44,829 nucleotides of DNA from Escherichia phage vB_Eco_Lzu_P3. This document shows, one piece after another, positions 3,577 to 35,444 of this stretch (the first letter of the stretch is position 1; the number at the start of each line of letters is the position of its first letter). The DNA is taken from sequence record PQ295796; one strand, 5' to 3'. A program made the translations under genes and the position numbers. The notes below the pieces were generated by a model. The model did not search any database and was not told where the DNA came from. It saw only the letters and a list, made by a program, of their open reading frames with translations.

Positions 3577-4677
3577 TTAGGACGCTGTGGTCGCGGTCAG
3601 CGTAACCAGTACGCCCGCCGTTTCCTTGATGTGACGGGTAGGCACTGCCTGTGCGGCCTGGGTCTTACGACGGCCTTTAGTATCGCCATCACCAACGGCG
3701 CCAACATCCTGCACGGTTGCCGGTGCGTTGTCCACCTGGCCCTGGTCCAGTTCCCAGTTAGCGGAAGTGGTAATATCGTCCAGTTTGAACGAGCGAACAC
3801 CTTCGATCGGAGTACGAGCGGACGCCTTCAGACGATAGCCTTTAACAGCCACGTTGAAGTCGAACTCGCCCTGCCACCAGCGCTCAATGTTCTCGTTACC
3901 ACCTTTTTCCTGCGCCAGCATATCAAGGCCATTGGTGGTGACTGCAACCGCGCCAGGGACCAGACCCAGCATTTTACCAGCACCCATTGCATCGGCAGCG
4001 GCATCGGAGATAATGAAACGGCGGCCCAGGCCATCGCCCATTACCTGCAGATCGCCGATCGCGAATACCTGCTCGGCAGATGGAAGCGCCTGGTAAGCAA
4101 TGAAGTTTGCCCAGGTAACGCCGTCCATAAACCAGGACTTAATCAAAGACGCCTGATCGCCGAACTTAGAAGCCGCCAGCGGGAAGTCTGCCAGGGTCGG
4201 GAAGGTACGACCGCCAACGCCGTCAACGCGCGCCGGTTGGGTGTAGTTTGCCGCTGCGTTGCTTTCAATAGCGGCTTTGCCCGCACCGATACCAGCTTTG
4301 AGGTAATGCAGCATAATCGCTTGAGTAGCCTGTGCCGCAATCTCAGCCGCAACGCTGTTAACGTTGGTTTCGATCTTAGCCATCATGGCCTTAGTGATTG
4401 CTACCGGACCCACTTTCGCGGAAAGGTTAACCGAGTTGGTCAGCATACGCGCCAGCACTTTTGCGGTCGCTGGAGTACCGACAGGGGCGTAGGCGTTACG
4501 GTCGGTAACGAGGTTGGCGATCAAGCCTACGGACATTTTTTCTACAACGTCCTTCAGCACTTCACCCGTGCCGAGAACAACAGCGCCGTTAGCGGCAGCG
4601 TTGAACACGTTCAGGTTATCGGGGATCATTTGCGTAACCGCGGTGACGAGTTTACGCTGGAACACTGTTAAAGACAT
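3577..4677 (-). CDS. Major capsid protein
   Basis: 366-aa ORF with AAGGA RBS, preceded by a scaffold-like gene and followed by a strong intrinsic terminator. Size and position are typical of a major capsid gene. Confidence 0.7.
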   Translation of the reverse strand: MSLTVFQRKLVTAVTQMIPDNLNVFNAAANGAVVLGTGEVLKDVVEKMSVGLIANLVTDRNAYAPVGTPATAKVLARMLTNSVNLSAKVGPVAITKAMMAKIETNVNSVAAEIAAQATQAIMLHYLKAGIGAGKAAIESNAAANYTQPARVDGVGGRTFPTLADFPLAASKFGDQASLIKSWFMDGVTWANFIAYQALPSAEQVFAIGDLQVMGDGLGRRFIISDAAADAMGAGKMLGLVPGAVAVTTNGLDMLAQEKGGNENIERWWQGEFDFNVAVKGYRLKASARTPIEGVRSFKLDDITTSANWELDQGQVDNAPATVQDVGAVGDGDTKGRRKTQAAQAVPTRHIKETAGVLVTLTATTAS

Positions 4678-4774: not shown

Positions 4775-5479
4775 TTACTCGTCGTCGCCCATTTTAGCGA
4801 TGATTTCACCCGCCTGTTTCGTCAAGTCAGTGATACCGAAGCTATGACCCATAGTGATTTTAGACTTCACATCTTCGACGACCTGCGTCGGTTTGCTCGG
4901 CGCACCACCGGCTGGCGTGCCTGCCAGGACAGATGCAAAATCGGCGTTACTACGGAACTCTTTTTCAAGTTCGTCCATAGTCAGCGCGGACGGTTTGCCG
5001 TCCTTCAATACCCGCACCTTCAAGCTGCCGTCTTCGCCGTCTTCCAGCGTTAGGCGGTCCATAACGTGGCGTTGCATGATACCCGCATTCTTACCGAACA
5101 GCTTCGATGCCAGGTCTTTGGCAGCGCTGCCGATGGTCAGGTCGTGGATCTGCTTGCGATAGGCTTCGATTTTCCCCGATGTGTCCGCTTCATGTTTTGC
5201 GAACTTATCTTTCCAGGACTTATCGATCGCTTCGAGGTCGCCATTTTTGCGCGCGGCGGCTTCCTCTTTCTCTTTCGCAAGGCGCTCCGCTTCGGCGCGA
5301 CGTTCGGCTTCTGCTTTCTTCTCGCTAACCAGCTTCGCGTTGTTGTCTTTCAGACCCTTGATTTCCGCCTGTACTTCTTCGGCGGTCATGAACGTGGATT
5401 TATACCCATCGCCATCGGCAACAAATAAAGCCTTCATGCCTTCTGGCAACGCGTCATATTCTGCTTTAGTAAGTTTCAT
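4775..5479 (-). CDS. Putative scaffolding protein
   Basis: Lys/Glu/Ala-rich, coiled-coil-like sequence (…KKAEAERRAEAERLAKEKEEAAARK…) immediately upstream of the capsid gene. Start moved to ATG at 5479 with AGGGGGA RBS. Confidence 0.5.
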   Translation of the reverse strand: MKLTKAEYDALPEGMKALFVADGDGYKSTFMTAEEVQAEIKGLKDNNAKLVSEKKAEAERRAEAERLAKEKEEAAARKNGDLEAIDKSWKDKFAKHEADTSGKIEAYRKQIHDLTIGSAAKDLASKLFGKNAGIMQRHVMDRLTLEDGEDGSLKVRVLKDGKPSALTMDELEKEFRSNADFASVLAGTPAGGAPSKPTQVVEDVKSKITMGHSFGITDLTKQAGEIIAKMGDDE

Positions 5480-5568
5480 GCTATCCCCCTGGGATTGTGG
5501 CAAAGCGGGCCACCCGCTTGACTTCACGCCTTAATATTATCAGCGATAAAAATAATCGCAAAATTCGC

Positions 5569-5615
5569 TTGCATTGCGGATGTTGGTTGCATTATATTGG
5601 TTGCACACCAACAGA
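5569..5615 (+). promoter_or_regulatory. Promoter TTGCAT-N18-TATATT, with two TTGGTTGCA elements flanking and overlapping the -10
   Basis: gcTTGCATtgcggatgTTGGTTGCAtTATATTGGTTGCACACCAACA. The -10 plus downstream element is almost identical to the 16.5-kb promoter. Confidence 0.5.
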
Positions 5616-5633
5616 GATATGAAGGAAGACAAA

Positions 5634-5948
5634 ATGACTAACATGACCGTAGCAACTCCAGTAGACGCCGCAATGGCCCGTTTCAATAAAGCTACCGTAG
5701 CGAATACCTTTACCTTTCACGCAATGCGTAACGCGGAAGCGCTGAATCTGTGCCAGAGCATGAATGCATCTGAAGCGGCAAAAGCGGCGATCAACTCCGC
5801 GACATTCGATAATCCGGCTTGCGGCCTGGTTCCGGCATCTTTCATAAACGCCCTGGTCGAAGCCTTTAACGATTTCATGTGCGTCGATGCCGTTGAAGCT
5901 GTATGTGCTCGCTTAACCTCAACCGGCGGCAACATCAAATTTAACTAA
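5634..5948 (+). CDS. Hypothetical protein (first gene of reverse-oriented cassette)
   Basis: Plus-strand ORF inside a minus-strand structural block. Start taken at ATG 5634 with GAAGGAAG RBS. A sigma70-like promoter with TTGGTTGCA elements lies upstream. Confidence 0.5.
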   Translation: MTNMTVATPVDAAMARFNKATVANTFTFHAMRNAEALNLCQSMNASEAAKAAINSATFDNPACGLVPASFINALVEAFNDFMCVDAVEAVCARLTSTGGNIKFN

Positions 5949-5987
5949 ACCAATCGGGGCGAAAGCCCCTAAAATGAGGACATAAAA

Positions 5988-6752
5988 ATGAGACTGACGA
6001 AAGACATTAAAAATCAGATCCTGGCTAACATCCTGCGCGACCACGAAATCGCGGCAGAAGCCAAACAAATCATGATGGACTCTCGCGACCTGGCGTACGC
6101 AATCACGCTGGACTGTATGCCGGAAGGCATTCGCACGTTCGCAGCGCTCCGCGAGCATATCAAGGCAATCCACGATGACCAGTCGCAGATGTACGGCGTC
6201 AGCGTATACACCAACAAGGCGACGTATAGTTATAACACCGACCGCCCGAAGGGTATCGGCAGCGTTTACGACGCCACCTTTGAAATCAACGCAGGCGGCA
6301 ATGTTCGCACCTTGTCCTTGAGCGGTGACGGTCGCCAATTCCGCGTGCATCGCGGATACTGGGAAGAGAAATATATGAATAAGCTCGCGCCTGATCTCGG
6401 CGATATCGTTCCGGGGTTCGAGACAGTTATGCTCGCGTCAGTGTGCGAAGTGGACGAGGAAGGAAAAGCGCTGCCGATATATCTCCCACGCGGTCGCGTA
6501 GACTACCCGGCGGACCATGACTTCTGTAAGCGCCTGGACCGCAACGACAAGGCACGTCGCGAGTTGCGTGCGAAGTATGACGCGTTCAAACTCACCGTTA
6601 CCGGTGTACTGGACCTGCACAATACTGACAAGAAGCTGATTAAGGCATGGCCTGAAGTTGAGCAATTCATACCATACCCGGACAAGCCAAAATCCACGGC
6701 GGTGGCGCTGGACGTGAAAACACTCAACGAGATTTGCGGCATTCCGCGCTAA
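5988..6752 (+). CDS. Hypothetical protein (254 aa, second gene of reverse-oriented cassette)
   Basis: ORF with AGGA RBS, followed by a bidirectional terminator at 6753..6786. No motif I could recognise. Confidence 0.6.
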   Translation: MRLTKDIKNQILANILRDHEIAAEAKQIMMDSRDLAYAITLDCMPEGIRTFAALREHIKAIHDDQSQMYGVSVYTNKATYSYNTDRPKGIGSVYDATFEINAGGNVRTLSLSGDGRQFRVHRGYWEEKYMNKLAPDLGDIVPGFETVMLASVCEVDEEGKALPIYLPRGRVDYPADHDFCKRLDRNDKARRELRAKYDAFKLTVTGVLDLHNTDKKLIKAWPEVEQFIPYPDKPKSTAVALDVKTLNEICGIPR

Positions 6753-6786
6753 CAAAAAGGGGCCATTACGGCCCCTTAATTATTTG
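6753..6786. terminator. Bidirectional intrinsic terminator
   Basis: AGGGGCC-attac-GGCCCCT with A/T tracts on both sides. Lies between the convergent cassette and the spanin genes. Confidence 0.6.
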
Positions 6787-6996
6787 CTGCAACTCCAGCA
6801 CCTGCGCCCTTAGCTTCGCCCCGCATTCCATATTTTTAACATCAATCATCAAATCTTCGTCGGGGTCCGCGGACGGGTTATCGAACTTGCACGGCGGTCG
6901 CAGTGCCGACTCCGTTAGCGGCATCAACGGCACGCTGCTTGATCCGCACGCGCTCAGCGTCAAAATTACAATCAGGGCGGTTAGGGCGCGTAACAT
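6766..6996 (-). CDS. Outer-membrane spanin (Rz1-like lipoprotein)
   Basis: Out-of-frame ORF overlapping the 3' part of the i-spanin gene. N-terminal MLRALTALIVILTLSACG has a lipobox (LSAC), followed by a Pro-rich region. Start at ATG 6996 with AGAGG RBS. Confidence 0.5.
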   Translation of the reverse strand: MLRALTALIVILTLSACGSSSVPLMPLTESALRPPCKFDNPSADPDEDLMIDVKNMECGAKLRAQVLELQQIIKGP

Positions 6997-7207
6997 ATTT
7001 AACAACCTCTTTTGTGATAGTCCGGTATTCCACGTCGCGGGCTTGTTCTGCCTGCACGGAGCGTTCAATTACTTTAGTTTGCTGCCGTTGGGCTCGGGCT
7101 TGCGCTTCTTGCGCCGCCTCCGCCACTACGCCAGTGCGATAGGAGTCACCTAGCCAGAATCCTACCGCCAGACCGATAATCAGTCCAATCGCTGCATATT
7201 TAATCAC
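6878..7207 (-). CDS. Inner-membrane spanin (Rz-like)
   Basis: 109 aa with an N-terminal transmembrane segment (AAIGLIIGLAVGFWL) followed by a charged coiled-coil-like region. GTG start at 7207 with a G-rich RBS. Confidence 0.5.
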   Translation of the reverse strand: MIKYAAIGLIIGLAVGFWLGDSYRTGVVAEAAQEAQARAQRQQTKVIERSVQAEQARDVEYRTITKEVVKYVTRPNRPDCNFDAERVRIKQRAVDAANGVGTATAVQVR

Positions 7208-8303
7208 GCCATAACCCCCGGTTTTTAAGCTGTGCGATAGTCATTAGTTCGCCTGAATCGGTGAACATCTTCGGCACTTTCACGCCGCGCATAATCTGGT
7301 CGGCGCGTTGCACTCCGTATAATTCTTCCAGAATATGGCGCGGCTGGCGCTGCACCCATGAGAAGAAATCAGTCTGCGCGTCGACCTGCTCACTCAGCAA
7401 TCGACCAGCGTCAGCCTTCAGTGCCGGACGCTTACCACTGGGCCAATCTTCCATGCCTTTAACCTTCCACGTCTCCGTAGACCGGCAACAATAATGCAAC
7501 TTGCCCGGCCCAGCGCCATATTGTGACCCAGCCACCATTTTCCCGCCGCGCTTTCCTTTGGTGTCGGGAGTAACATCAACCGGATAAAACAGGCGATCGC
7601 GTAGCTGGCACATGGGAGAAGTATGCGTGTCCAATGTAGATAACCATTGGCGACCTTCGAGAATATCGTCATTTGCTTTTACCATTAGTTCGCGGGCGGT
7701 CGCCGCATAGTGGTTGACTGCTGACTTAACAACGCTTGAGATAGCTTGCGCACTACGACCGCCGAGCGAGCGCCTCACGTCCGCTATAATTTCCATAGTC
7801 GGCTTGCCCTGGATGAATCCGGCGCGCACCTGATTGCCGATCTGCGTTCTGGTCCATTCTGAAAGTGAATCGGGCCATTGCATCAGGGTATTGCCCTGAA
7901 ACGGGTTTTTCATTGCCGTCGCTGCGATCTGCGCACCGGTCACTACGCCAACCACCTCGACCGCAGGTACAGCGACCACCGGCTGGATCGCTGCCGTTAA
8001 TGTGTCGGCGAGATAATCAGCCTCCGTGTCGGCGAACTCCTGAAGGCTTTCAGCTAACGCCTTAAACTCGGTGCGCAGTTCCGTTTTGACGGTCTTGTCC
8101 AGTTGCGTCAACAGTGTGGTAAGTGCCTTGTTACTCATGGTCTTTTTGCCATCAAGTAACTCGGTCAGCTTACCCAGTAACGTGGGCCGGAACTTCTCCC
8201 ACATAGCCAACACCCTTCGCGCCTGGTCATTACTCAGGCGCTGGGTGAAGATGTGTCGGCGGATCATTCGATCCGCCATATATTGATTAATTGTCTTCGC
8301 CAT
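7200..8303 (-). CDS. Head morphogenesis protein (SPP1 gp7 / Mu F-like minor head protein)
   Basis: 367 aa with the LDTHTSPMCQLRD motif characteristic of the SPP1 gp7 family. Lies immediately downstream of the portal gene with an overlapping start/stop. Confidence 0.65.
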   Translation of the reverse strand: MAKTINQYMADRMIRRHIFTQRLSNDQARRVLAMWEKFRPTLLGKLTELLDGKKTMSNKALTTLLTQLDKTVKTELRTEFKALAESLQEFADTEADYLADTLTAAIQPVVAVPAVEVVGVVTGAQIAATAMKNPFQGNTLMQWPDSLSEWTRTQIGNQVRAGFIQGKPTMEIIADVRRSLGGRSAQAISSVVKSAVNHYAATARELMVKANDDILEGRQWLSTLDTHTSPMCQLRDRLFYPVDVTPDTKGKRGGKMVAGSQYGAGPGKLHYCCRSTETWKVKGMEDWPSGKRPALKADAGRLLSEQVDAQTDFFSWVQRQPRHILEELYGVQRADQIMRGVKVPKMFTDSGELMTIAQLKNRGLWRD

Positions 8304-13683: not shown

Positions 13684-14175
13684 TTATGCTGCGTTACGAC
13701 CGATTCGCTCGGCAACGTCCCACTGCTTACCATCAAACAACGCCTGTCTGCCGATTGCACGGCGTACCAGACCCTTAAGCACTTCCCCGCCTTGCTTGCG
13801 GAACTGCGGCAGAGTAGCACGGACCTTCGCCCAGTCGCCCAACCGCACCGCATCATCGAAATCATTCGCGACGTCATCCGGTACGATCGGACCAGGACCG
13901 GCGTTGATTACCAGGTCCACCAGCGCGTCGAATTGCGCTTGATTAATGCTCGGATGTGCGTATTTGTTCACCCAGTCCTCGGCATACGCCACATCGCGCT
14001 TGAGTAGCTCCAGCGCTTCTGCACGTGTAATGCTTCGTGGCGGATTAGTGCCGGTGTGCCCATAACCCCAGGTGTACAGGCCGCGGGCCTGCTCTTTCTT
14101 GGTCGCGAAATACGGCACCGGGCTGAAAGCCTCCCATGCTGCCGTAAATCTTAGACCGTTGTCACTGAATCGCAT
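13684..14175 (-). CDS. Endolysin (phage lysozyme, GH24-like)
   Basis: 163 aa with a T4-lysozyme-like N-terminal catalytic region (…EAFSPVPYF…GLYTWGYGHTG…). Start overlaps the stop of the upstream membrane-protein gene. Confidence 0.7.
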   Translation of the reverse strand: MRFSDNGLRFTAAWEAFSPVPYFATKKEQARGLYTWGYGHTGTNPPRSITRAEALELLKRDVAYAEDWVNKYAHPSINQAQFDALVDLVINAGPGPIVPDDVANDFDDAVRLGDWAKVRATLPQFRKQGGEVLKGLVRRAIGRQALFDGKQWDVAERIGRNAA

Positions 14176-14407
14176 GTTTTACCCCATTCAAAACAGCATT
14201 ACGCAGTGTGCGCAACGCAAACAGCCATATTAACGCGGTCCAGGTGGTATCAGATACGTCTCCTGTTTGCAACAATCCGATAATACAGACCATTGCCGTT
14301 AACAGATACAGCACCCGGCCGAAAATGCCATCCCGGACGGACGGCGCATACACGTTAAACAGGGACGAAGCCCCGATGATAACAAACAACAGGACGGAGA
14401 TAATCAT
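14162..14407 (-). CDS. Holin/antiholin-like small membrane protein
   Basis: 81 aa with two or three hydrophobic segments, immediately upstream of the endolysin. G-rich RBS. Confidence 0.5.
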   Translation of the reverse strand: MIISVLLFVIIGASSLFNVYAPSVRDGIFGRVLYLLTAMVCIIGLLQTGDVSDTTWTALIWLFALRTLRNAVLNGVKHAIQ

Positions 14408-14694
14408 TTTGCACCCCCCGGAAGTCGGAACGACGCAATAGTCTCCCTGATCCGGTCGGCGATTGGCATCCAGAAAATTGCGGTCACGAAGCCCAAACCG
14501 GCGACAGTGCGCTCACCCGACAAACCAGCCCACTCAGCGATAGCCGGTGCGCCAAATATGGCACACAGGAAGCCAACTACGACATACAAAACGAAGTTTA
14601 GCGGCCCTTTCGTAGCCTCACCATGAATGCGTGCGCCTACGAAGCCACCCGCCAGACATGCCAGGGCGAATAGCCACTCGTTTAGCTTATCCAT
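14404..14694 (-). CDS. Holin-like membrane protein
   Basis: 96 aa with about three predicted transmembrane segments, in the lysis cassette. The start codon abuts a terminator hairpin and has no obvious SD. Confidence 0.45.
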   Translation of the reverse strand: MDKLNEWLFALACLAGGFVGARIHGEATKGPLNFVLYVVVGFLCAIFGAPAIAEWAGLSGERTVAGLGFVTAIFWMPIADRIRETIASFRLPGGAK

Positions 14695-16452: not shown

Positions 16453-16465
16453 TGTTCAGTCCTCA

Positions 16466-16513
16466 TGTTGGTGTGCAACCAATCTAGCAGGGTGCCAGGC
16501 GGAATGCAACCAA
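16466..16513 (-). promoter_or_regulatory. Promoter TTGCAT-N17-TAGATT (minus strand) with an ATTGGTTGCAcACCAACA operator-like element overlapping -10 and +1
   Basis: Minus-strand read: attaatATTGGTTGCATtccgcctggcaccctgcTAGATTGGTTGCACACCAACAtgaggactgaacaATG. Confidence 0.5.
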
Positions 16514-19206: not shown

Positions 19207-19536
19207 TTATTTGGAAGTTTTATTATTGCGTACCCAGGATCGCACGGTGCTCTGATTAATTCCTGTCAACTCCGCGATCATTGCCCATGACTTCCCCTCA
19301 TCACGTAAACGGATAACCTGTTTTTTGTATTCTTCCATTTCCTCATTGTGCTTTTGCAGCTTGCTTGCTGCCGTACCGTTGAGTAATTCCAGCTTCGCGC
19401 GCAATTCTTTCTCGGTAAGTCGCAGACGTTCGATTTCAAATAGCACCGCACCCACGGCATCGGTATATGCCCAGGACCGGCTTGTCTCACTGCAAACAGT
19501 CTTAGTTAACATTTCGATTGCGTCGTCGATATTCAT
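19207..19536 (-). CDS. Putative HTH transcriptional regulator (first gene of leftward early operon)
   Basis: 109 aa. C-terminal segment GKSWAMIAELTGINQSTVRSWV resembles an HTH. GGAGA RBS. A palindromic operator-like site lies in its own leader. Confidence 0.5.
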   Translation of the reverse strand: MNIDDAIEMLTKTVCSETSRSWAYTDAVGAVLFEIERLRLTEKELRAKLELLNGTAASKLQKHNEEMEEYKKQVIRLRDEGKSWAMIAELTGINQSTVRSWVRNNKTSK

Positions 19537-20746: not shown

Positions 20747-20935
20747 ATGGCTATATTCTTTGTTTTATTTCGTTGCCGTATTACCGGCGATGAGCAACCG
20801 GAAATCGTTATGAATCAGAACTGGAATTGCTGCTGGACTCAAGCCAGAGGACTGGCGGCTACCATGAACGAAGCCGCGAAGCGGGCTGGGGTTAAACATG
20901 AATATTACATTGCTCAGTTTTCAAGGGTGGAATAA
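20747..20935 (+). CDS. Hypothetical protein (62 aa)
   Basis: ORF in the early operon with a weak RBS; start is uncertain. Confidence 0.3.
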   Translation: MAIFFVLFRCRITGDEQPEIVMNQNWNCCWTQARGLAATMNEAAKRAGVKHEYYIAQFSRVE

Positions 20936-22365
20936 TGGCGATTAAACCAAAACGTAAAACGCAATCCGGTAGCAATACGGAACACTCATTACTTGGTCCA
21001 TCCGGTGCTAAAAAATGGATGGGTTGCCCTGCCGCCCTGGTGGTGGAAAAAGATATCCCGAACGAATCCGGGCAAGCCGCGATTAACGGTACGAGTATGC
21101 ACACCGTATCTGAGGTGGTGCTAAACCGCATTATCGCCGGTGAGAAGCTGATAACCGCGAAGACGTATAAAGGGTGCTACGTCGAGAACGAAGGCAAGGG
21201 GCCAGTAAAGGCACACCCTAAAGCACCGAAAGGCGGCGTACTGGTCAACGACGACATGGTGAAACAGTGCGATGCATACATCGACCACTGGCGACCGCTC
21301 CTCGAAGTGGCGGAGTTTGTCCAGCTTGAGATGCGCGCCGACCTAACCCGCGTTCTCCACCCCGGCGTCGAGATCAACGGCAACAAGGTTAAGACGTTCG
21401 GCACTGCCGATATGGTCATGGTCATGAAGAAGACCGACGGCACGTACATGCTGATTGTTGGCGACCTGAAGACCGGGCGACATAAGGTCGAGGCGAAAGA
21501 AAACAAACAGCTTATGTTGTACGCGCTGGGCCTGCTGCGCAAGCTGCAAACCATGTACGACATTACGACCGTGCGCCTGGTCATCTTTCAACCGTATTGC
21601 GGCGGGGCGTCAGAGTGGGATATCACAGTGGAAGCGCTGGAGATATTCGCGAAGTTTGCATCCAAGCGCGCTGTCATAGCACTGGATGCGTACGAACGCG
21701 GCAAAAAAGGACTCACCCGCGCCGACTTCCGACCCAGCGTCGATGCGTGCCAGTGGTGCAGATTTGCGGACCAGTGCAGCGTCCGGGCGAAGGCCGCAAT
21801 CGACACGATGACGCCACCAACGGCAACTGACGAAGACCTGGGCGACGACGTGAGCGTGGCAACCGAGGAAGAGTGCGCCAACCACGACCGCAATATGGCC
21901 CGCGAAGCCCGGAAGGCTGCCCGACGTGCTAAACGGGGCAAGAAGGAATCCACCCCAGGCGCTATGAGCGCGGCGGAACTGCGCAAGGCTTATGAAGGAC
22001 TTGACGCAATGCGCCAGCACATCAAAGCTATCGAATCCGCGGTATTCAAGGCGGTCATGGCGGGCGATGGCGAATCGTTGGGCCTTAAGATGGTTGCCGG
22101 TAAGGAAGGGATCCGTAAGTGGGCGGACGAGAGCGAAGTGATTGAAATCTTCACGAAGGCCCGGATCAAGCGCGATGTGATGTACAAAGAAACATTGCTC
22201 AGCCCGACCGATGCCGAGAAGGTACTGAAGGACGAAAAACCGAAAGTGTGGGCGAAGCTGTGTGCTAAAATCACGCGCGCACCCGCTAAACCGGTGTTAG
22301 CACCAATCGACGACCCGCGCCCCGCGTGGTCTGAAGCTACTGACGAGGACTTAAGCGATGAATAA
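20935..22365 (+). CDS. PD-(D/E)xK exonuclease, Cas4/RecB-like (DUF2800-type)
   Basis: RecB-type motifs are visible: GDLKTG, QLMLYA (QxxxY), one N-terminal Cys (WMGCP) and a C-terminal Cys triad (CQWCRFADQC), consistent with an Fe-S cluster as in Cas4-like nucleases. Confidence 0.6.
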   Translation: MAIKPKRKTQSGSNTEHSLLGPSGAKKWMGCPAALVVEKDIPNESGQAAINGTSMHTVSEVVLNRIIAGEKLITAKTYKGCYVENEGKGPVKAHPKAPKGGVLVNDDMVKQCDAYIDHWRPLLEVAEFVQLEMRADLTRVLHPGVEINGNKVKTFGTADMVMVMKKTDGTYMLIVGDLKTGRHKVEAKENKQLMLYALGLLRKLQTMYDITTVRLVIFQPYCGGASEWDITVEALEIFAKFASKRAVIALDAYERGKKGLTRADFRPSVDACQWCRFADQCSVRAKAAIDTMTPPTATDEDLGDDVSVATEEECANHDRNMAREARKAARRAKRGKKESTPGAMSAAELRKAYEGLDAMRQHIKAIESAVFKAVMAGDGESLGLKMVAGKEGIRKWADESEVIEIFTKARIKRDVMYKETLLSPTDAEKVLKDEKPKVWAKLCAKITRAPAKPVLAPIDDPRPAWSEATDEDLSDE

Positions 22366-22600
22366 AGTATTCGCATTCTTATTGATGATTATGCTCGGTG
22401 CGCTGGGATTTATCCTGCATTGCGTGCAAGGCGTGTTAATGGTCGCCTGGATGATTCGCCATCCGACACTCTGGCCGGACGATGGGTATAGTGTCGCTGC
22501 CGCCGACTGGGTGGCGAAGAACATAGACCGACCACCGTTAAGCTGGATCGAGAACGCCGTCAGCTACGTGACCAGAAATCTTTTTAATAAAAGTGCTTGA
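22358..22600 (+). CDS. Hypothetical small membrane protein
   Basis: Hydrophobic N-terminus (VFAFLLMIMLGALGFILHCV). GAGGA RBS. Overlaps the upstream stop. Confidence 0.4.
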   Translation: MNKVFAFLLMIMLGALGFILHCVQGVLMVAWMIRHPTLWPDDGYSVAAADWVAKNIDRPPLSWIENAVSYVTRNLFNKSA

Positions 22601-22635
22601 CCGCTTAGGCGCAACCAAGTAGATTAGCAACCAAG
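22597..22635 (+). promoter_or_regulatory. Promoter TTGACC-N17-TAGATT, with GCAACCAAG elements in the spacer and just downstream of -10
   Basis: Upstream of the SSB-like gene. The motif is a variant of TGCAACCAA. Confidence 0.4.
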
Positions 22636-22690
22636 CCGAACGGGGTGGCTCATAATAACCCCGATACATGTGAGAATGAGGAATTGGAAA

Positions 22691-23473
22691 ATGGCTAAAG
22701 TCAACCTGAAAAATGTGCGCGTATGTTTCCTTAAAATTTGGGAGCGCGATACCCCTAAACAGGATGGTCAGAAACCGGCATACCGTGCAGTGATTCTTCT
22801 TGATAAAGAAGATCCGCAGGTGGACAAAGTGGAAGCGGCAGCGCGCGCAGTGCTCACCGACAAGCTGAAATCCGAGAAGAATGCTGATAAGTGGATGGAC
22901 CGCCACTACGCCCAGGATTCTAAGGAATGCGCAGTTCGCGACGGTGACGAGCGCGATGAAGTGACCGAAGAATTCGAAGGCATGTTGTACATCAACGCCA
23001 AATCGTTCAAACAGCCGATCATTCAAACGTCACTCGGCGAGAAGCAGACGGAACAAGGTCTGACCGTAGAAGGCGACGAGATCGAAGGCCAGGAGATCTA
23101 CTCCGGTTGTTATTGCAATGTGTCCCTGGATATTTGGGCGTGGAACAATACCAACGGCAAGGGACTCGGTGCTGGTCTTTTGGGTCTGCGCTTCCGCGAT
23201 GACGGCGAAGCCTTCGGCGGTGGCGGGTCTTCTTGCTCAGACGAAGACCTGGGCGACGATGACGAAGATGAAAGCCCGCGCAAGTCCAAAAAATCAAAAC
23301 GTCGTGATGACGATGACGAAGACGACAAGCCGCGCAAGTCCAAAAAATCCAAGCGCCGCGATGACGACGACGAAGATGAAGATGAGAAACCTCGTAAACG
23401 TCGTAAGCCACGCGATGACGAAGATGAGGACGACGACGAAGACGAAGCACCACGTAAACGTCGCCGCCGTTAA
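22691..23473 (+). CDS. Putative ssDNA-binding protein (T7 gp2.5-like / DUF2815-like) with charged repeat C-terminus
   Basis: N-terminus MAKVNLKNVRVCFLKIWE… resembles phage SSB-like proteins. C-terminal third is made of PRKSKKSKRRDDDDEDD-type repeats. Start at ATG 22691 with GAGGAA RBS. Confidence 0.45.
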   Translation: MAKVNLKNVRVCFLKIWERDTPKQDGQKPAYRAVILLDKEDPQVDKVEAAARAVLTDKLKSEKNADKWMDRHYAQDSKECAVRDGDERDEVTEEFEGMLYINAKSFKQPIIQTSLGEKQTEQGLTVEGDEIEGQEIYSGCYCNVSLDIWAWNNTNGKGLGAGLLGLRFRDDGEAFGGGGSSCSDEDLGDDDEDESPRKSKKSKRRDDDDEDDKPRKSKKSKRRDDDDEDEDEKPRKRRKPRDDEDEDDDEDEAPRKRRRR

Positions 23474-23491
23474 GGGTAAAGCCCACTATTC

Positions 23492-23517
23492 AAGCCCGCT
23501 TAATGCGGGCTTTTTTA
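23492..23517 (+). terminator. Intrinsic terminator after the SSB-like gene
   Basis: AAGCCCGC-ttaat-GCGGGCTT stem followed by TTTTTT. Confidence 0.6.
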
Positions 23518-23532
23518 ATAGGACAATGAAAA

Positions 23533-23703
23533 ATGCGCATTAAAGCCAGCGAAGTAAAAGTCGGAATGCGAGTATGGTCCAAGCTACTGGGGGAATATTT
23601 CACCGTTGCCGAGATTCGCAACAACGGCGAGGAGATAACCCTTTCCGACGGTATCTTCTCCATGATCGGCAGCGCCGACGCCGTAGTGAGGATTAAGCAA
23701 TGA
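23533..23703 (+). CDS. Small hypothetical protein (56 aa), translationally coupled to the DNA polymerase gene
   Basis: Not in the ORF track. Has an AGGA RBS; its stop overlaps the polymerase ATG (ATGA). Confidence 0.3.
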   Translation: MRIKASEVKVGMRVWSKLLGEYFTVAEIRNNGEEITLSDGIFSMIGSADAVVRIKQ

Positions 23704-25991
23704 AAGACTTCGAACGCCTGTTTCTCGATACCGAGACATTTAGCGGGGTGGATCTGAAGAAAGTGGGCGCATACGCCTACGCGGAACACCCAACTACCGA
23801 GATTATGATTTGCACATACGCCATCGACGAGGGCCGCGTGCAGACGTGGGATTGCACCGAGTCCCCCACAATGCCGCGGGAACTGCGCAAGGCGCTCCGC
23901 CGTGTCTCCCGCAAGAAAGCAAAAATAGTGATGGCTAACGGCCTCCTGTTTGACCGCCTGGTCATTCGCGAGAAGTGGGGTATAGATCTGCCGGTGTGCC
24001 AGATCGAAGACACCATGATTATGGCCTTCAGACACGCGCTGCCGGGTAGTCTCGACATGCAATGCCAGGTGCTGGGCGTTGACGCAGAACACGCGAAGGA
24101 TAAGGCAGGCAAGGCGCTGATTAAACGATTCTGTAAGCCTACCCCTAAGACCTACAAAATCCGCCGCTACACGCGCGAGACGCACCCCGAGGAGTGGGCT
24201 AAATTCCTGCGCTATGCCGCGCTGGATATCATCGCGATGCGCGAAGTCTATTGGCGCATACCGGACTGGGGTAACACGCCGAAGGAAGACGAAATCCTGC
24301 TTATTGACCAGTTGATCAATGATCGCGGCTTCTATGTGGACGTTGACCTGGCGCGCGCTGCGATCAAAGCGGTGCAAGCGCATAAGGAAGAATTGAAGGA
24401 AGAAGCCTGGGAGCGCTTCGGCGGTAAGCTGACCGGCAATGACTTCCTGCCAGCGCTGCGCGACCTCGCTCCTGCGTTCACAATCCACAACGCGCAGAAA
24501 TCCACGCTTAACGACCTGCTGGAAGATCCAGACTTCCCGGACGAAGGCAAAGTGCTTATCGAGATGCGCCTCGGTGCGTCATCCACGGCGTCGACTAAGT
24601 ACAATCCGCTCGTTAATGGCCTATCCGCCGATGGTCGCCGCCGTGGGTGTCTTCAGTATGGCGGCGCAAAGCGTACGCTACGCTGGGCGGGCAAAGGATT
24701 CCAGCCGCAAAACCTGGCGCGCGGCGAGTATAGCGACGACCACGAAGGGAAGATTAAACGCCGTGAAGGCGAGAGCGATATATCCTTTTGGGTGCGGTCG
24801 CACATGCTCACCAACGGCATCAACTCCCTGTTACGCGGGACAGCGCACTGGGCGTATGACATATCGAAGTTAACGGCCTCGACCGTTCGCGGGTGCATTA
24901 TTCCGGCGAAGGGTAAGAAGTTTGTCGTAGCGGACTATTCCAACGTGGAAGGGCGTGGACTTGCCTGGATCGCTGGCGAGAAAACAGCGCTCATGGTGTT
25001 TAGGGCCGATCGCGATATTTATTGTGAAACTGCCGGTAAGATGTTTGGCCTCGACCCGGAATACATCAAAGCCAACCGCAAAGACTTGCGCCAGATTGGT
25101 AAGGCGTGCGAATTGGGACTTGGCTATGGCGGCGGCGTGGCTGCGTTCTTGCAGTTCGCTAAAAACCTGGGCCTCGACCTTTACGCGATGGCGGACGTCA
25201 TGAAGGGCACATTCCCCGATCACATTTGGGCAGCGGCTAAACGGGGTTATGAGTACGCCCGCATTAACGAAGCGAAGCGACCGCCGAAGCCTGGCAAGAA
25301 GGACGAGCGCCCGACTTACATACTGCCGAAAAACGTATGGCTGACGTGTGATGCGATTAAACGCATGTGGCGCGAGGCTCACCCGAAGACGGTAGCCTTT
25401 TGGGCCGAGCTTGAGGACGCGGTGTTGTGTGCAATCCGCAATCCGGGCAAAGCGTACTGGGCTGGCGCGAACGTTCGCCCGGATGGTAAGAAAGCGCTCA
25501 AGATAGTCCGCACGAAGGCGAAGCATGACCCAACCTTCGACGAGGAACGCGACGACCCGAACGCCGCGGGGTGGTGGTTGAAAATTGAGTTGCCGTCGGG
25601 GCGTATTATGAGTTACCCAGGCATTGCGCTGTCAGTGACGACCGAGATCGACGAAGACACCGGCAAGAAGCGCACCAGTACCCGCATCAAATACCAGGGC
25701 GAGAATCAGACGACGCGCCAGTGGGGATCCCAGTACACCTACGGCGGCAAACTGACAGAGAACATCGTACAGGCGCTGTGTCGCGATATCCTCGCGTGGT
25801 CCATGCCGGGGGTTGAAGCCGCGGGCTATGAGATCGTACTGTCCGTACATGATGAACTGATCACCGAAGTGCCGGATACTGACGACTACACAACCGAGGA
25901 GTTGTGCGCGCTTATGTGCGACCTGCCTGTTTGGGCGAAAGGCTTCCCGCTTGCCGCTGAAGGCGACATCATGTACAGGTACAGGAAATAA
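23700..25991 (+). CDS. DNA polymerase, family A (Pol I-like) with 3'-5' exonuclease domain
   Basis: Exo I motif LFLDTETFSG. Polymerase motif A (DYSNVEGR), motif B (RQIGKACELGLGYGGG) and motif C (SVHDEL) are all present. 763 aa. Confidence 0.9.
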   Translation: MKDFERLFLDTETFSGVDLKKVGAYAYAEHPTTEIMICTYAIDEGRVQTWDCTESPTMPRELRKALRRVSRKKAKIVMANGLLFDRLVIREKWGIDLPVCQIEDTMIMAFRHALPGSLDMQCQVLGVDAEHAKDKAGKALIKRFCKPTPKTYKIRRYTRETHPEEWAKFLRYAALDIIAMREVYWRIPDWGNTPKEDEILLIDQLINDRGFYVDVDLARAAIKAVQAHKEELKEEAWERFGGKLTGNDFLPALRDLAPAFTIHNAQKSTLNDLLEDPDFPDEGKVLIEMRLGASSTASTKYNPLVNGLSADGRRRGCLQYGGAKRTLRWAGKGFQPQNLARGEYSDDHEGKIKRREGESDISFWVRSHMLTNGINSLLRGTAHWAYDISKLTASTVRGCIIPAKGKKFVVADYSNVEGRGLAWIAGEKTALMVFRADRDIYCETAGKMFGLDPEYIKANRKDLRQIGKACELGLGYGGGVAAFLQFAKNLGLDLYAMADVMKGTFPDHIWAAAKRGYEYARINEAKRPPKPGKKDERPTYILPKNVWLTCDAIKRMWREAHPKTVAFWAELEDAVLCAIRNPGKAYWAGANVRPDGKKALKIVRTKAKHDPTFDEERDDPNAAGWWLKIELPSGRIMSYPGIALSVTTEIDEDTGKKRTSTRIKYQGENQTTRQWGSQYTYGGKLTENIVQALCRDILAWSMPGVEAAGYEIVLSVHDELITEVPDTDDYTTEELCALMCDLPVWAKGFPLAAEGDIMYRYRK

Positions 25992-29395: not shown

Positions 29396-29428
29396 TTGGT
29401 TGCATAATCATATTGGTTGCATTATATT
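29396..29428 (+). promoter_or_regulatory. Promoter TTGCAT-N17-TATATT, with tandem TTGGTTGCA elements (29396..29404 and 29413..29421)
   Basis: Read directly, upstream of the gene at 29476. Confidence 0.5.
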
Positions 29429-29475
29429 GAGGGTGTCCGGTTTGGACGCCCTTTTTAATACCTGGAGACAACACG

Positions 29476-29940
29476 ATGAAAATTTTACAAGAAGAGAAAA
29501 ATTACTGGGCCGCGCAATGCCTCGAAGCCCGCGAGCAAACGGCCAACGCGAAACAATCGGCCGAAATCTTCCGGTCAGGTTATGAAACGGAAGAAAAGCG
29601 TCGCATGGAGTTAGAGGAGCGCTTCGAACTGCTATTCGAATTGATGGGGATTATGCAGCGCACCGGATACACCACCAGCGTTGCACTAAACCGCATCACT
29701 GCCGATAGTTTGCGTGAGCACTGTAAACGTGCGGAGGAGTACGTGCGTCCGAAGGGTCGCCAGTCTTCGATCGCCAGGAAAGATTTGGTGCTTATGGCGT
29801 GGCGCAACCCGACAAACGGCAGCTTCTACCCGGACGCGCGCCCGCTTAGTGCTGAGGAGACAAAGCGCGTGCAACGCATTCTCAAAACCGGCAATAAAAT
29901 CGCCCTGTATGCGATAGATACCGACCATGCAGAAGAGTGA
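29476..29940 (+). CDS. Hypothetical protein (154 aa)
   Basis: GGAGA RBS. A promoter with tandem TTGGTTGCA elements and a 5'-UTR hairpin lie upstream. Confidence 0.5.
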   Translation: MKILQEEKNYWAAQCLEAREQTANAKQSAEIFRSGYETEEKRRMELEERFELLFELMGIMQRTGYTTSVALNRITADSLREHCKRAEEYVRPKGRQSSIARKDLVLMAWRNPTNGSFYPDARPLSAEETKRVQRILKTGNKIALYAIDTDHAEE

Positions 29941-30617: not shown

Positions 30618-31084
30618 AATTACTGATTTGCGATTTGGATGGCGTTATTAACGGTTCAAGCGATGCGCGTGCCGACTTGGTGCCTGGCATAAAAACTAAA
30701 TCCACCTTTTGGGCGAAGTGGCACAAGGCGCACGTCCGCGAAGACCTTAACATGGATATGCTGCCGCTACTGCGCATGTATAAAGAGCAAGGCTTCGAGA
30801 TCGCGTATCTGACCAACCGGCAGCGAGAATGTTGGGACACCACCGCCGAGCAATTGGAGGTCTTCCCAGTAGGCCGGTTGTTTATGCGCCACATGCTGGA
30901 CGACACCCCGCCGCCTGAGTTTAAAGCGTGCGCCGTGTTCAAAATGGTATGTTACGCGGACGTGTCTGAACTGGTCATCATTGAAGATTGCGAGAAGAAC
31001 ATCGCGGCAATTCGTCGGGCGTGTAGTGATTTGGTCCCGAAAATTTACGCAATAAACGTTGCAAAATTCACTTGCAACCAATAG
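30614..31084 (+). CDS. HAD-superfamily hydrolase (putative nucleotidase/phosphatase)
   Basis: N-terminal motif I LLICDLDGVI (DxDG). GAGAG RBS. ATGA overlap with the upstream gene. Confidence 0.5.
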   Translation: MKLLICDLDGVINGSSDARADLVPGIKTKSTFWAKWHKAHVREDLNMDMLPLLRMYKEQGFEIAYLTNRQRECWDTTAEQLEVFPVGRLFMRHMLDDTPPPEFKACAVFKMVCYADVSELVIIEDCEKNIAAIRRACSDLVPKIYAINVAKFTCNQ

Positions 31085-31101
31085 GTTGGTTGCACTATAG
31101 T
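31072..31101 (+). promoter_or_regulatory. Promoter TTGCAA-N18-TATAGT, containing the inverted repeat TGCAACCAA-N4-TTGGTTGCA (31073..31094)
   Basis: A perfect 9-bp inverted repeat separated by 4 bp, embedded in the promoter. Confidence 0.5.
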
Positions 31102-34254: not shown

Positions 34255-34479
34255 ATGAAAACTTTAATTATGATTTGTGCGGTTATGTTGTCCGGCTGTG
34301 CTGTAGAACGCAACAACGGCGATTGCATTACTATGGCTTACGGTAGCTGCATGCTGCGCTACGTTGACGGGCAAAAAGTGCCCTCCGGGGATGTGGACTT
34401 GCGATTCACTGGGCTGTCTGCCGATAGTGACGGCAATTTTTCCGGCACTGTTTCAGTTAAATCACGGGAGTGGAAGTAA
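34255..34479 (+). CDS. Small lipoprotein, candidate Cor/Llp-like superinfection-exclusion protein
   Basis: Signal peptide with lipobox (MKTLIMICAVMLSGC). About 74 aa. Transcribed divergently from the tail fibre gene, from a promoter at 34196..34224. Confidence 0.45.
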   Translation: MKTLIMICAVMLSGCAVERNNGDCITMAYGSCMLRYVDGQKVPSGDVDLRFTGLSADSDGNFSGTVSVKSREWK

Positions 34480-35444
34480 TGGGCGCTGGGATACTTATCG
34501 ACTACAACGACGGAAGGCCGCGCATGGAGATAACCGCAGGACTTCGCGCGCCGTCATTCTGTACCTCATTCTATCAGCGCTGCCAGTCTGATAAGACGCT
34601 TACTATTAACACTCAGCTAACGCCAGGGTCAGATCTGGTCGTCGCGCTCACAAGCCCCGTTGAAGTTATAGAAGTATTCGACCAGACACTGGTCTTGCCC
34701 GACCCTTTCTACGTCACCTCAGTACAACGTAATGGGGATGGCGGAATCACCTTGCGAGGTGAAGACGCATATGGCGCATATAGCGGGCTTCCAACATGGG
34801 GCGGGGTGATCATGGAAGTGTTGCCGGTGGGTTCGAGCAACGCAGGGTTACTGGTGGCGAACTCGACGGACTTCACCGCCATATCAAATGTATCCAGGCT
34901 AATGACCTGCCAATATGCGCAGCGCGTGTGGGTGAACGGAAGTATGCCGTTACCTGTAGGCGGTGTCCCATTCGCGCGCTGGGACGACGGAAACGTGTCG
35001 GTCGGCTTCGATGGCGGAAGTATTATCGTCCGTAATGCGTCCTATGGTGGGATTGACGACGTAGGCGCTGCCGTTGAAATGGACCTGGTTATATTCAACA
35101 ATACGCCACCCACCCCTGGAAACGGCATCACCATGACAAACAACCAGGGTCAGGTCACGTTCTCAACAGTGAATAAGCCATTTGTTTATGACCGCCTTAT
35201 CTATATCGGCGGCGGCGATCAGTACATAGGCAATAGCCTGGTCCAGCTTTCGTATACCGGCGCGCTCATTGAGAACAACGGCGGCTACAATCACGTTCGA
35301 ATGAACGGGATTCGAATGGCGGGCGGTAATGTGCGCATCGCCAAAAACCGGGTAATCGGCAACTATTCACGGCAGCAATTCCAAATGCCGGGTAAAAATA
35401 TTGCAGTACCCACCCCGTTACTCGTAATTCCTAACATCTATTAA
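34479..35444 (+). CDS. Hypothetical Gly/Asn/Val-rich protein, predicted beta-helix-like
   Basis: ATG overlaps the lipoprotein stop (TAATG), with a GGGAG RBS. Repetitive …NGGYNHVRMNGIRMAGGNVRIAKNRVIGN… segments suggest a parallel beta-helix. Confidence 0.4.
   Translation: MGAGILIDYNDGRPRMEITAGLRAPSFCTSFYQRCQSDKTLTINTQLTPGSDLVVALTSPVEVIEVFDQTLVLPDPFYVTSVQRNGDGGITLRGEDAYGAYSGLPTWGGVIMEVLPVGSSNAGLLVANSTDFTAISNVSRLMTCQYAQRVWVNGSMPLPVGGVPFARWDDGNVSVGFDGGSIIVRNASYGGIDDVGAAVEMDLVIFNNTPPTPGNGITMTNNQGQVTFSTVNKPFVYDRLIYIGGGDQYIGNSLVQLSYTGALIENNGGYNHVRMNGIRMAGGNVRIAKNRVIGNYSRQQFQMPGKNIAVPTPLLVIPNIY

Follow-up and report, generated by a model that had tools for sequence, protein, structure and literature searches.

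A lineage-specific nmad5 cassette reading against the head gene block of Escherichia phage vB_Eco_Lzu_P3

What is the role of a small gene cassette that reads against the structural genes in which it is embedded? The genome of Escherichia phage vB_Eco_Lzu_P3 (sequence record PQ295796; the whole stretch of 44,829 nucleotides is referred to below as the window) raises this question with two plus-strand genes, open reading frame (ORF) 1 and nmad5, placed between the scaffold and capsid genes on one side and the spanin and head-morphogenesis genes on the other, all of which are on the minus strand. An earlier note on this DNA had described this layout, and both genes proved to be real, with Pfam or PHROG matches and ribosome-binding sites. 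It had found neither protein recognisable; this did not hold for the larger one, a full-length member of the Pfam family Nmad5 that has already been named and experimentally handled in Dhillonvirus. We conclude that the cassette is real, ordinary in kind and moron-like, and that its larger gene is already described in Dhillonvirus. We have high confidence in its architecture and identity. The explanation favoured as a whole, a Dhillonvirus-specific accessory cassette with a non-catalytic early Nmad5 protein, has in our estimate a probability of about one half.

The window is a complete Dhillonvirus genome, collinear with SSL-2009a, whose gene set was mapped onto it, and the 1.7 kb around the cassette share 95-97% nucleotide identity with many Dhillonvirus genomes from Escherichia, vB_EcoS_PNS1 and SSL-2009a among them. 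The minus strand carries the primase, lysis, terminase, portal, head-morphogenesis, Rz/Rz1, scaffold, capsid and tail genes, and the plus strand carries the replication operon at 19.9-32.3 kb. Within the head block the cassette runs from a predicted promoter through the optional ORF1 and nmad5, its anchor gene, to a bidirectional terminator, with a gap of 39 nt between the two genes (Table 1).

Comparison with related phages showed that the site is an insertion hot spot, empty in the nearest outgroups and variable within Dhillonvirus. Edwardsiella phage eiAU and Klebsiella phage HSE3 (capsids 60% and 44% identical, respectively) are the closest outgroups that share the head module; in both, the scaffold gene directly follows the head-morphogenesis gene and the slot is empty. 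In Pectobacterium phage Ymer it is filled by a different insert comprising three small genes and a tRNA. Since neither eiAU nor HSE3 has anything in it, the slot must have taken at least two separate insertions, the spanin genes and the cassette. Homology to virion or assembly proteins present at this locus in all relatives was looked for and not found. The 359-bp segment that carries ORF1 is missing from SM_S22 and Teewinot, with identical junctions, and Teewinot has also lost nmad5 codons ~34-246 and with them the cassette. Phage records numbered 60 for ORF1, about 150 for nmad5 and about 158 for the Dhillonvirus capsid, and ORF1 is present in about 40% of the Dhillonvirus records. An unrelated gene of 135 amino acid residues replaces ORF1 in seven records, and sixteen records have an extra 170-residue beta-clamp-like/phrog_3007 gene downstream of nmad5. 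All this supports the view that the cassette was inserted in this lineage, in reverse orientation within the head block, and that it brings a predicted promoter and terminator of its own. As to the other occupants of the site, the Rz/Rz1 spanin genes (6766-7207, minus strand) lie in the same slot, separated by about 7 kb from the genes for holin and endolysin (13684-14694). The 170-residue gene, as found in phage 'rolling' (2325-2837), shows sub-threshold similarity to the central domain of the DNA polymerase III beta clamp and a strong match to phrog_3007 ('RusA-like resolvase'), and its database annotations are inconsistent.

The nmad5 product matches Pfam model PF18757 with 207.9 bits (E=2e-61; gathering cutoff 27 bits), its residues 1-253 aligning with all 206 model positions (1-206), and the gene is under purifying selection (dN/dS 0.07-0.18 between Dhillonviruses). 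The family profile matched the cassette gene alone in the window, and a paralogue elsewhere, for example the 205-residue gp58, was rejected. An exhaustive phmmer search yielded 98 cluster representatives, 51 diverse ones of which were aligned. The termini of the family are conserved and its middle is variable, with RLT..I...I..NAL as the N-terminal motif and TxxKLxxAWPE...P...AL....LNxxCG[IL]P as the C-terminal one; the window protein has the family-wide conserved N-terminal R-L-T, T213, L217, W221, P222, P229, L246, N247, G251 and P253. Only W221, P222, L246 and N247 are invariant in the 51 sequences, among which no D, E, H, C, K or S residue is invariant; the invariant residues carry no catalytic signature. 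In the confident AlphaFold2 model (predicted local distance difference test, pLDDT, 89.7; predicted template modelling score 0.82), helices at the N-terminus precede a central sheet of six strands (79-127), which is followed by a long helix (178-209) and by short helices at the C-terminus. The window protein is ~40-50 residues longer than most family members and has a larger central beta-domain. Foldseek searches of viral models (BFVD) retrieved other Nmad5 proteins alone, that of eiAU among them, and comparison with solved structures revealed no enzyme-like fold. The sequence search of PDB returned noise, the best hits being lipoyl domains at residues 124-185 (E>=0.085). A profile search gave 72 homologues; each has a single domain and at most ~300 residues (most 190-254), and none is a fusion to another domain. 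Neither Nmad5 nor ORF1 had a match in NCBIfam or PADLOC at E<=0.1.

The family name Nmad5 derives from an association with nucleotide-modification genes. Its source is said to be Iyer et al. 2013 (NAR 41:7635), where it reportedly stands for nucleotide modification associated domain 5. Most of the homologues that we located have early or replication genes around them. Five metagenomic phage contigs, with only 39-56% identity between their Nmad5 proteins, share the order DUF2800 exonuclease, Enc34/gp2.5-type SSB, Nmad5, (0-2 small ORFs), PolA, and in a sixth lineage Nmad5 heads the same DUF2800-SSB-PolA operon. The window has this module at 20935-25991 without Nmad5, and a 56-residue ORF stands alone between SSB and PolA. 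In eiAU, Nmad5 (188 bits to the family profile) is encoded between the primase-helicase and the holins; in the lambdoid phage HK542 it comes immediately after N in the pL operon; in Bas95, Vibrio phage D283b and one contig it lies within arrays of small early genes, and in one Vibrio phage it is found in the tail module. The cassette itself has scaffold and spanin genes for neighbours and no nucleotide-modification gene; the replication genes were checked by Pfam, and the gene list of the near-identical, collinear SSL-2009a has no annotation of a hydroxymethylase, a 5-hydroxymethyldeoxyuridine (5-hmdU) kinase or an aGPT-Pplase. The label 'DNA-modification enzyme' is therefore poorly supported for Nmad5, given that there is no enzyme-like fold, no invariant residue of catalytic type, no domain fusion and no base-hypermodification pathway, and that homologues are mostly found among early or replication genes.

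A phenotype of nmad5 has been published. Dhillonvirus mutants escaping Tmn carry nmad5 K216E (SM_A8) or K296E (SM_S22), in the gene beside the scaffold gene (Yamashita et al. 2025, Commun Biol 8:290, PMC11846954). According to the same study, reversion of the mutation brought back Tmn sensitivity and its introduction gave escape, deletion of nmad5 was viable and left the phage Tmn-sensitive, and cloning of the gene, from SM_S22, failed through toxicity; the gene was called a DNA-modification enzyme, with Iyer et al. 2013 as the source (PMC11846954). A host-interaction, exclusion or anti-defence function, which the earlier note named as frequent in such insertions, would find a footing in the published link between nmad5 and Tmn and would lose some of it in the unchanged sensitivity of the deletion mutant. 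The window protein has K216 in the same HNTDKKLIKAWP segment as the SM_A8/SM_S22 protein. This residue sits in the best-conserved motif of the family, where its alignment column is K in 32 of the 51 sequences, then Q, A, R and T; together these five account for 50 of the 51, and none of them is acidic. In SM_S22 (PP627283) the deposited nmad5 coding sequence (5005-6009) encodes 334 residues, and the conserved start gives 254. We rejected a real 80-residue N-terminal extension: the SM_S22 ORF is annotated 80 codons too long, crossing the promoter and entering the scaffold gene, so that the published K296E corresponds to K216E.

Other parts of the window also have counterparts in the literature on host defence. 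The plus-strand gene at 29476-29940 encodes a 154-residue homologue (79% identity) of SM_S22 CDS0035, the published anti-Tmn ORF35, which lies between methyltransferase and HNH genes; SM_A8 has no such gene there. Neither ORF1 nor Nmad5 gave a significant BLASTP match with CDS0035 (best E 0.11 over 13 residues). The promoter of the homologue (29397-29431) and that of the cassette both carry the core TTGGTTGCATTATATTG (29400-29431 in the former), and the two may therefore be co-regulated. A preprint reports direct triggering of Tmn by T2 RIIB, which it describes as a membrane-anchoring replisome component (bioRxiv 2026, PMC13001434). The escape determinants of the Dhillonvirus SECphi4 are SSB, DNA polymerase and a 56-residue protein, nmad5 not being among them, and the 'SECphi4 56aa protein' was cloned as a candidate defence-sensitivity determinant by Stokar-Avihail et al. 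(bioRxiv 2022.08.27.505566). The 56-residue ORF of the window (23533-23703, plus strand), which fills the SSB-PolA gap, Nmad5's place in other phages, may be the same gene.

The signals that bound the cassette are conserved as well. Its predicted promoter and leader are near-invariant in all Dhillonvirus loci compared, whichever gene stands first; promoter activity and timing are predictions from sequence. The repeated motif TGGTTGCA, noted earlier as operator-like, is a genuine feature of the genome: twelve copies are found in the window against 1.6 expected, a number reached in none of 100 shuffles. Ten of the twelve are located at six promoter regions within or bordering intergenic DNA, paired at four of these, and are oriented toward the downstream gene, except for one arm of a palindrome. 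The remaining two (plus strand) have no plus-strand gene downstream. Typically the motif is preceded by TAnAT, which resembles a -10 element, and the promoters concerned serve non-structural or accessory genes. In the cassette the second copy lies within TTGGTTGCACACCAAC, a stretch extending over the end of the -10 element and the predicted transcription start; the element TAnATTGGTTGCACACCAAC is also present at the gp55 promoter (16460-16480, minus strand). The motif looks like a binding site for a phage regulator. The first gene of the primase operon, gp52 (19207-19536, minus strand), itself with a TGGTTGCA site in front, encodes a 109-residue helix-turn-helix protein that matches Sigma70 region 4 and HTH_23 and is annotated as 'transposase' in SSL-2009a; gp52 is a candidate regulator of the motif-bearing promoters. 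At the other end, the hairpin that the earlier note had read as a bidirectional terminator was indeed called on both strands (free energy -15.9 kcal/mol on the plus strand and -22.5 on the minus strand, where the T-run is better), and PTXU06 has an equivalent terminator annotated at the same position. The hairpin between ORF1 and nmad5 has no T-run on the plus strand. A search of positions 5400-6900 against Rfam gave no match.

Table 1. Coordinates of the cassette, its flanking genes and the TGGTTGCA sites in the window
Feature	Position	Strand	Details
Predicted sigma-70-type promoter	5569..5598	+	-35 TTGCAT (5569-5574), 18-nt spacer, -10 TATATT (5593-5598); from sequence
Two copies of TGGTTGCA	5584-5591, 5598-5605 (in 5584..5613)	+	second copy part of TTGGTTGCACACCAAC
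ORF1 indel segment	5614..5972	+	359 bp; ORF1, ribosome-binding site and 3' hairpin; blastn junctions 5613/5973; promoter alignment
ORF1	5634..5948	+	104 residues; Shine-Dalgarno-like GAAGGAAG 5 nt before ATG; phrog_24635
Hairpin between ORF1 and nmad5	5956..5969	+	GGGGC-GAAA-GCCCC; free energy -11.4; part of ORF1 indel
nmad5 (ORF2)	5988..6752	+	254 residues; GAGGA 7 nt before start; Pfam PF18757, phrog_1965
K216 codon	6633..6635	+	AAG; within family motif T213-x-x-K-L-x-x-A-W-P-E
Bidirectional intrinsic terminator hairpin	6757..6777	both	common to cassette (+) and convergent Rz1/late transcript (-)
Major capsid protein	3577..4677	-	flanking gene
Scaffold	4775..5479	-	flanking gene
Rz1	6766..6996	-	flanking gene
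Rz	6878..7207	-	flanking gene
Head morphogenesis	7200..8303	-	flanking gene
TGGTTGCA site, gp55 block	16474/16505	-	upstream of block
TGGTTGCA site, gp52-primase operon	19724	-	upstream of operon
TGGTTGCA site, gene at 29476	29397/29414		upstream of gene
TGGTTGCA site, gp30	31073/31087		upstream of gene; perfect palindrome TGCAACCAA-N4-TTGGTTGCA at 31072-31094
TGGTTGCA site, cor-like lipoprotein gene	34193		upstream of gene
Remaining TGGTTGCA copies	13216, 15943	+	

ORF1 has a single family match, phrog_24635 (E=1e-67), and encodes an acidic (pI 5.1), predicted helical protein; its sequence search of PDB produced noise (E=1.5). Its homologues are 59-97% identical, with H29, C63, C83 and C91 invariant, and the protein is possibly metal-binding. 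Outside Dhillonvirus they are found in early or DNA-metabolism regions of unrelated phages: in Pantoea phage AAM37, in Aglimvirinae myoviruses, 3' of a DNA ligase gene in a 47-kb contig (Logan SRR23967305) that has a PurZ-like adenylosuccinate synthetase, and in a contig where the gene stands after primase and before a superinfection-immunity gene. None of the neighbours of these homologues in other phages proved to be Nmad5-like. ORF1 is probably a small early gene that moves horizontally and independently and that came to lie between the leader and nmad5. The SRR23967305 contig also encodes an HD/YfbR-like phosphohydrolase and may belong to a diaminopurine (Z-genome) phage.

How could these observations fit together? 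In the favoured explanation, the cassette would be transcribed with non-structural genes, separately from the late head genes, since promoters and leaders matching its own stand before the primase operon, the gp55 block, the anti-Tmn homologue and the cor-like exclusion gene. For its larger product the likeliest role, which we put forward tentatively, is that of a binding or adaptor protein without catalysis, belonging to the early/DNA-metabolism gene set. The conserved N- and C-terminal helices (TxxKLxxAWPE...LNxxCG[IL]P) would form a module contacting a phage or host partner, and the variable central beta-domain would be free to diverge. Wild-type Nmad5 would be neutral for Tmn sensing, and K216E would be a gain of function at the partner-binding surface, masking the real trigger or blocking Tmn; a gain of function fits because the missense change escapes and the deletion does not. 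A more elaborate version is speculative and, taken with all its parts, rather unlikely: Nmad5 would be a misnamed, new-fold adaptor that rides with replication genes and contacts the replisome or a host membrane or defence component; beside the real Tmn trigger, K216E would turn it into a Tmn blocker, and ORF1, with its invariant His/Cys3 set, would be a separate metal-binding counter-defence protein exchanged between unrelated phages.

Several points weigh against the favoured explanation. As to accessory status, nmad5 is present in about 95% of the Dhillonvirus records and therefore behaves as a near-core gene, and the label 'accessory' would have to be drawn from the published nmad5 deletion and from Teewinot. 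The base composition of the cassette is not foreign to the surrounding genome either: its GC content is 0.531 against 0.546 for the window, and GC at third codon positions (GC3) is 0.675 in nmad5, with core genes ranging from 0.56 to 0.70; ORF1 is slightly lower (GC 0.505, GC3 0.543). The promoter that the earlier note had assigned to the cassette is conserved in Dhillonvirus loci and predicted, and yet it was missed by a generic promoter scan, because its weak -35 element matches the consensus at only three of six positions. A specific role for ORF1 gains little from its AlphaFold2 model, which is of low confidence (pLDDT 50.6). For Nmad5, the missing known fold amounts to negative evidence, and synteny with replication genes would fit a replisome helper and a host-directed protein alike. 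In Yuavirus and Vojvodinavirus, and only there, Nmad5 lies inside a thymidine-hypermodification cluster (PMC9476957). Finally, the neomorphic reading of K216E is inferred from the genetics of one paper (PMC11846954).

The most direct competitor takes the family name, given for association with nucleotide-modification genes, at face value: Nmad5 would be a DNA base-modification factor, and Tmn would sense or be affected by the modification. The window does encode two DNA methyltransferases elsewhere, and in Yuavirus and Vojvodinavirus Nmad5 stands between a 5-hmdU DNA kinase and a dUMP hydroxymethylase-type thymidylate synthase (PMC9476957). However, modification genes accompany Nmad5 in one of about eight types of context and in two related genera, Dhillonvirus has no annotated hypermodification genes, the invariant residues are limited to W, P, L and N, and neither an enzyme fold nor a catalytic-domain fusion was found. 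Moreover, Tmn sensitivity is unchanged after nmad5 deletion (PMC11846954); were Tmn to sense a modification made by Nmad5, this would be hard to explain, and we regard this alternative as improbable. A close rival, though in our view still an unlikely one, is that Nmad5 genuinely, though dispensably, assists the replisome or recombination and might partner the gp2.5-type SSB or PolA. It would have been relocated from the replication operon in Dhillonvirus and would have no dedicated role in host conflict, its link to Tmn being indirect, through sensing of replisome-associated proteins. This rival would account for an SSB, Nmad5, PolA order kept over 39-56% protein identity, for the same DUF2800-SSB-PolA module in the window minus Nmad5, for the beta-clamp-like/phrog_3007 DNA-metabolism gene beside nmad5 in 'rolling'-type cassettes, and for a Tmn trigger in T2, RIIB, that is described as a membrane-anchoring replisome component (PMC13001434). 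It does not readily account for Nmad5-bearing lambdoid phages (HK542, Stx phages) that have no PolA or gp2.5-type SSB, or for the small-early-gene arrays and the tail module in which Nmad5 is found elsewhere; toxicity of nmad5 cloned alone and a divergent central domain are more typical of conflict proteins.

The remaining alternatives concern the two genes jointly. They are adjacent, 39 nt apart and under one shared promoter, and the toxic nmad5 clone came from SM_S22, a phage without ORF1 (PMC11846954), as would suit a functional pair such as a toxic effector and its modulator. We consider such a pair very improbable: only 60 of about 150 nmad5-bearing Dhillonvirus records have ORF1, an unrelated 135-residue gene can fill its slot, and elsewhere homologues of either gene occur without the other as a neighbour. 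That both proteins are head-assembly or virion components has hardly any probability left and is already largely refuted. Nothing but the location in the head block, and the one Vibrio phage with an Nmad5 gene inside its tail module, speaks for it; the reverse orientation, the non-late-type promoter, a locus that stands empty in outgroups sharing the head module, the viable nmad5 deletion (PMC11846954), the natural loss in Teewinot and the early or replication regions in which homologues lie all speak against it.

Dhillonviruses are common phage-therapy and model coliphages. The nmad5 gene is one of only two Dhillonvirus loci known to control Tmn escape, and to its published description we add that the enzyme label is poorly founded, that nmad5 tracks early and replication modules, that its locus is a polymorphic hot spot, and that its promoter belongs to a class common to the phage's other accessory genes. 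If Nmad5 indeed binds rather than modifies, the published account of escape, in which Tmn senses modified DNA, would need revising, and the experimental focus would move to the partner of Nmad5. As a natural, tolerated insertion site with a predicted promoter and terminator, the locus could also be of use for payload engineering in Dhillonviruses.

Among known systems, the closest is the nmad5 of SM_A8 (CDS7) and SM_S22 (CDS6) (PMC11846954): the gene, the locus, the length of 254 residues, the HNTDKKLIKAWP segment, K216, the promoter and the terminator are the same, and the window has the optional ORF1 upstream as in SM_A8, whereas SM_S22 is without it. The Yuavirus/Vojvodinavirus proteins (M6, SN1, PAC9, LK3) belong to the same family, but BLAST aligns only the C-terminal third, at 38-41% identity; the genes flanking them encode the 5-hmdU DNA kinase and hydroxymethylase-type thymidylate synthase and also PLP (pyridoxal phosphate) and radical-SAM-type enzymes (PMC9476957), and PAC9 and LK3 have M6-type thymidine-hypermodification genes, none of which is in the Dhillonvirus gene list. 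In T2 RIIB as in Nmad5, both of them early/middle phage proteins, one missense substitution is enough to abolish Tmn restriction (PMC13001434). The two differ in that RIIB also allows escape through nonsense mutations and activates Tmn by itself (PMC13001434), whereas nmad5 deletion gives no escape; none of the structures matched by the Nmad5 model in BFVD is RIIB-like.

The moron concept goes back to Juhala and Hendrix. The cassette shares with phage morons an extra gene unit between structural genes, its own predicted promoter and terminator and absence from the site in relatives, and the comparison drawn in the earlier note is apt to that extent: this is a lineage-specific insertion with its own predicted signals. 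In the strict sense it fails, since composition is typical of the genome rather than foreign, nmad5 is near-core and nearly universal in the genus, and the phage is virulent, with no aspect of prophage expression. The nearest parallel within the same genome is the cor-like lipoprotein gene (~34255-34479, plus strand; MKTLIMICAVMLSGC...), which is followed by a 324-residue plus-strand ORF at 34470-35444; like the cassette, it is reverse-oriented, here in the tail block, and has the TGGTTGCA motif at its promoter.

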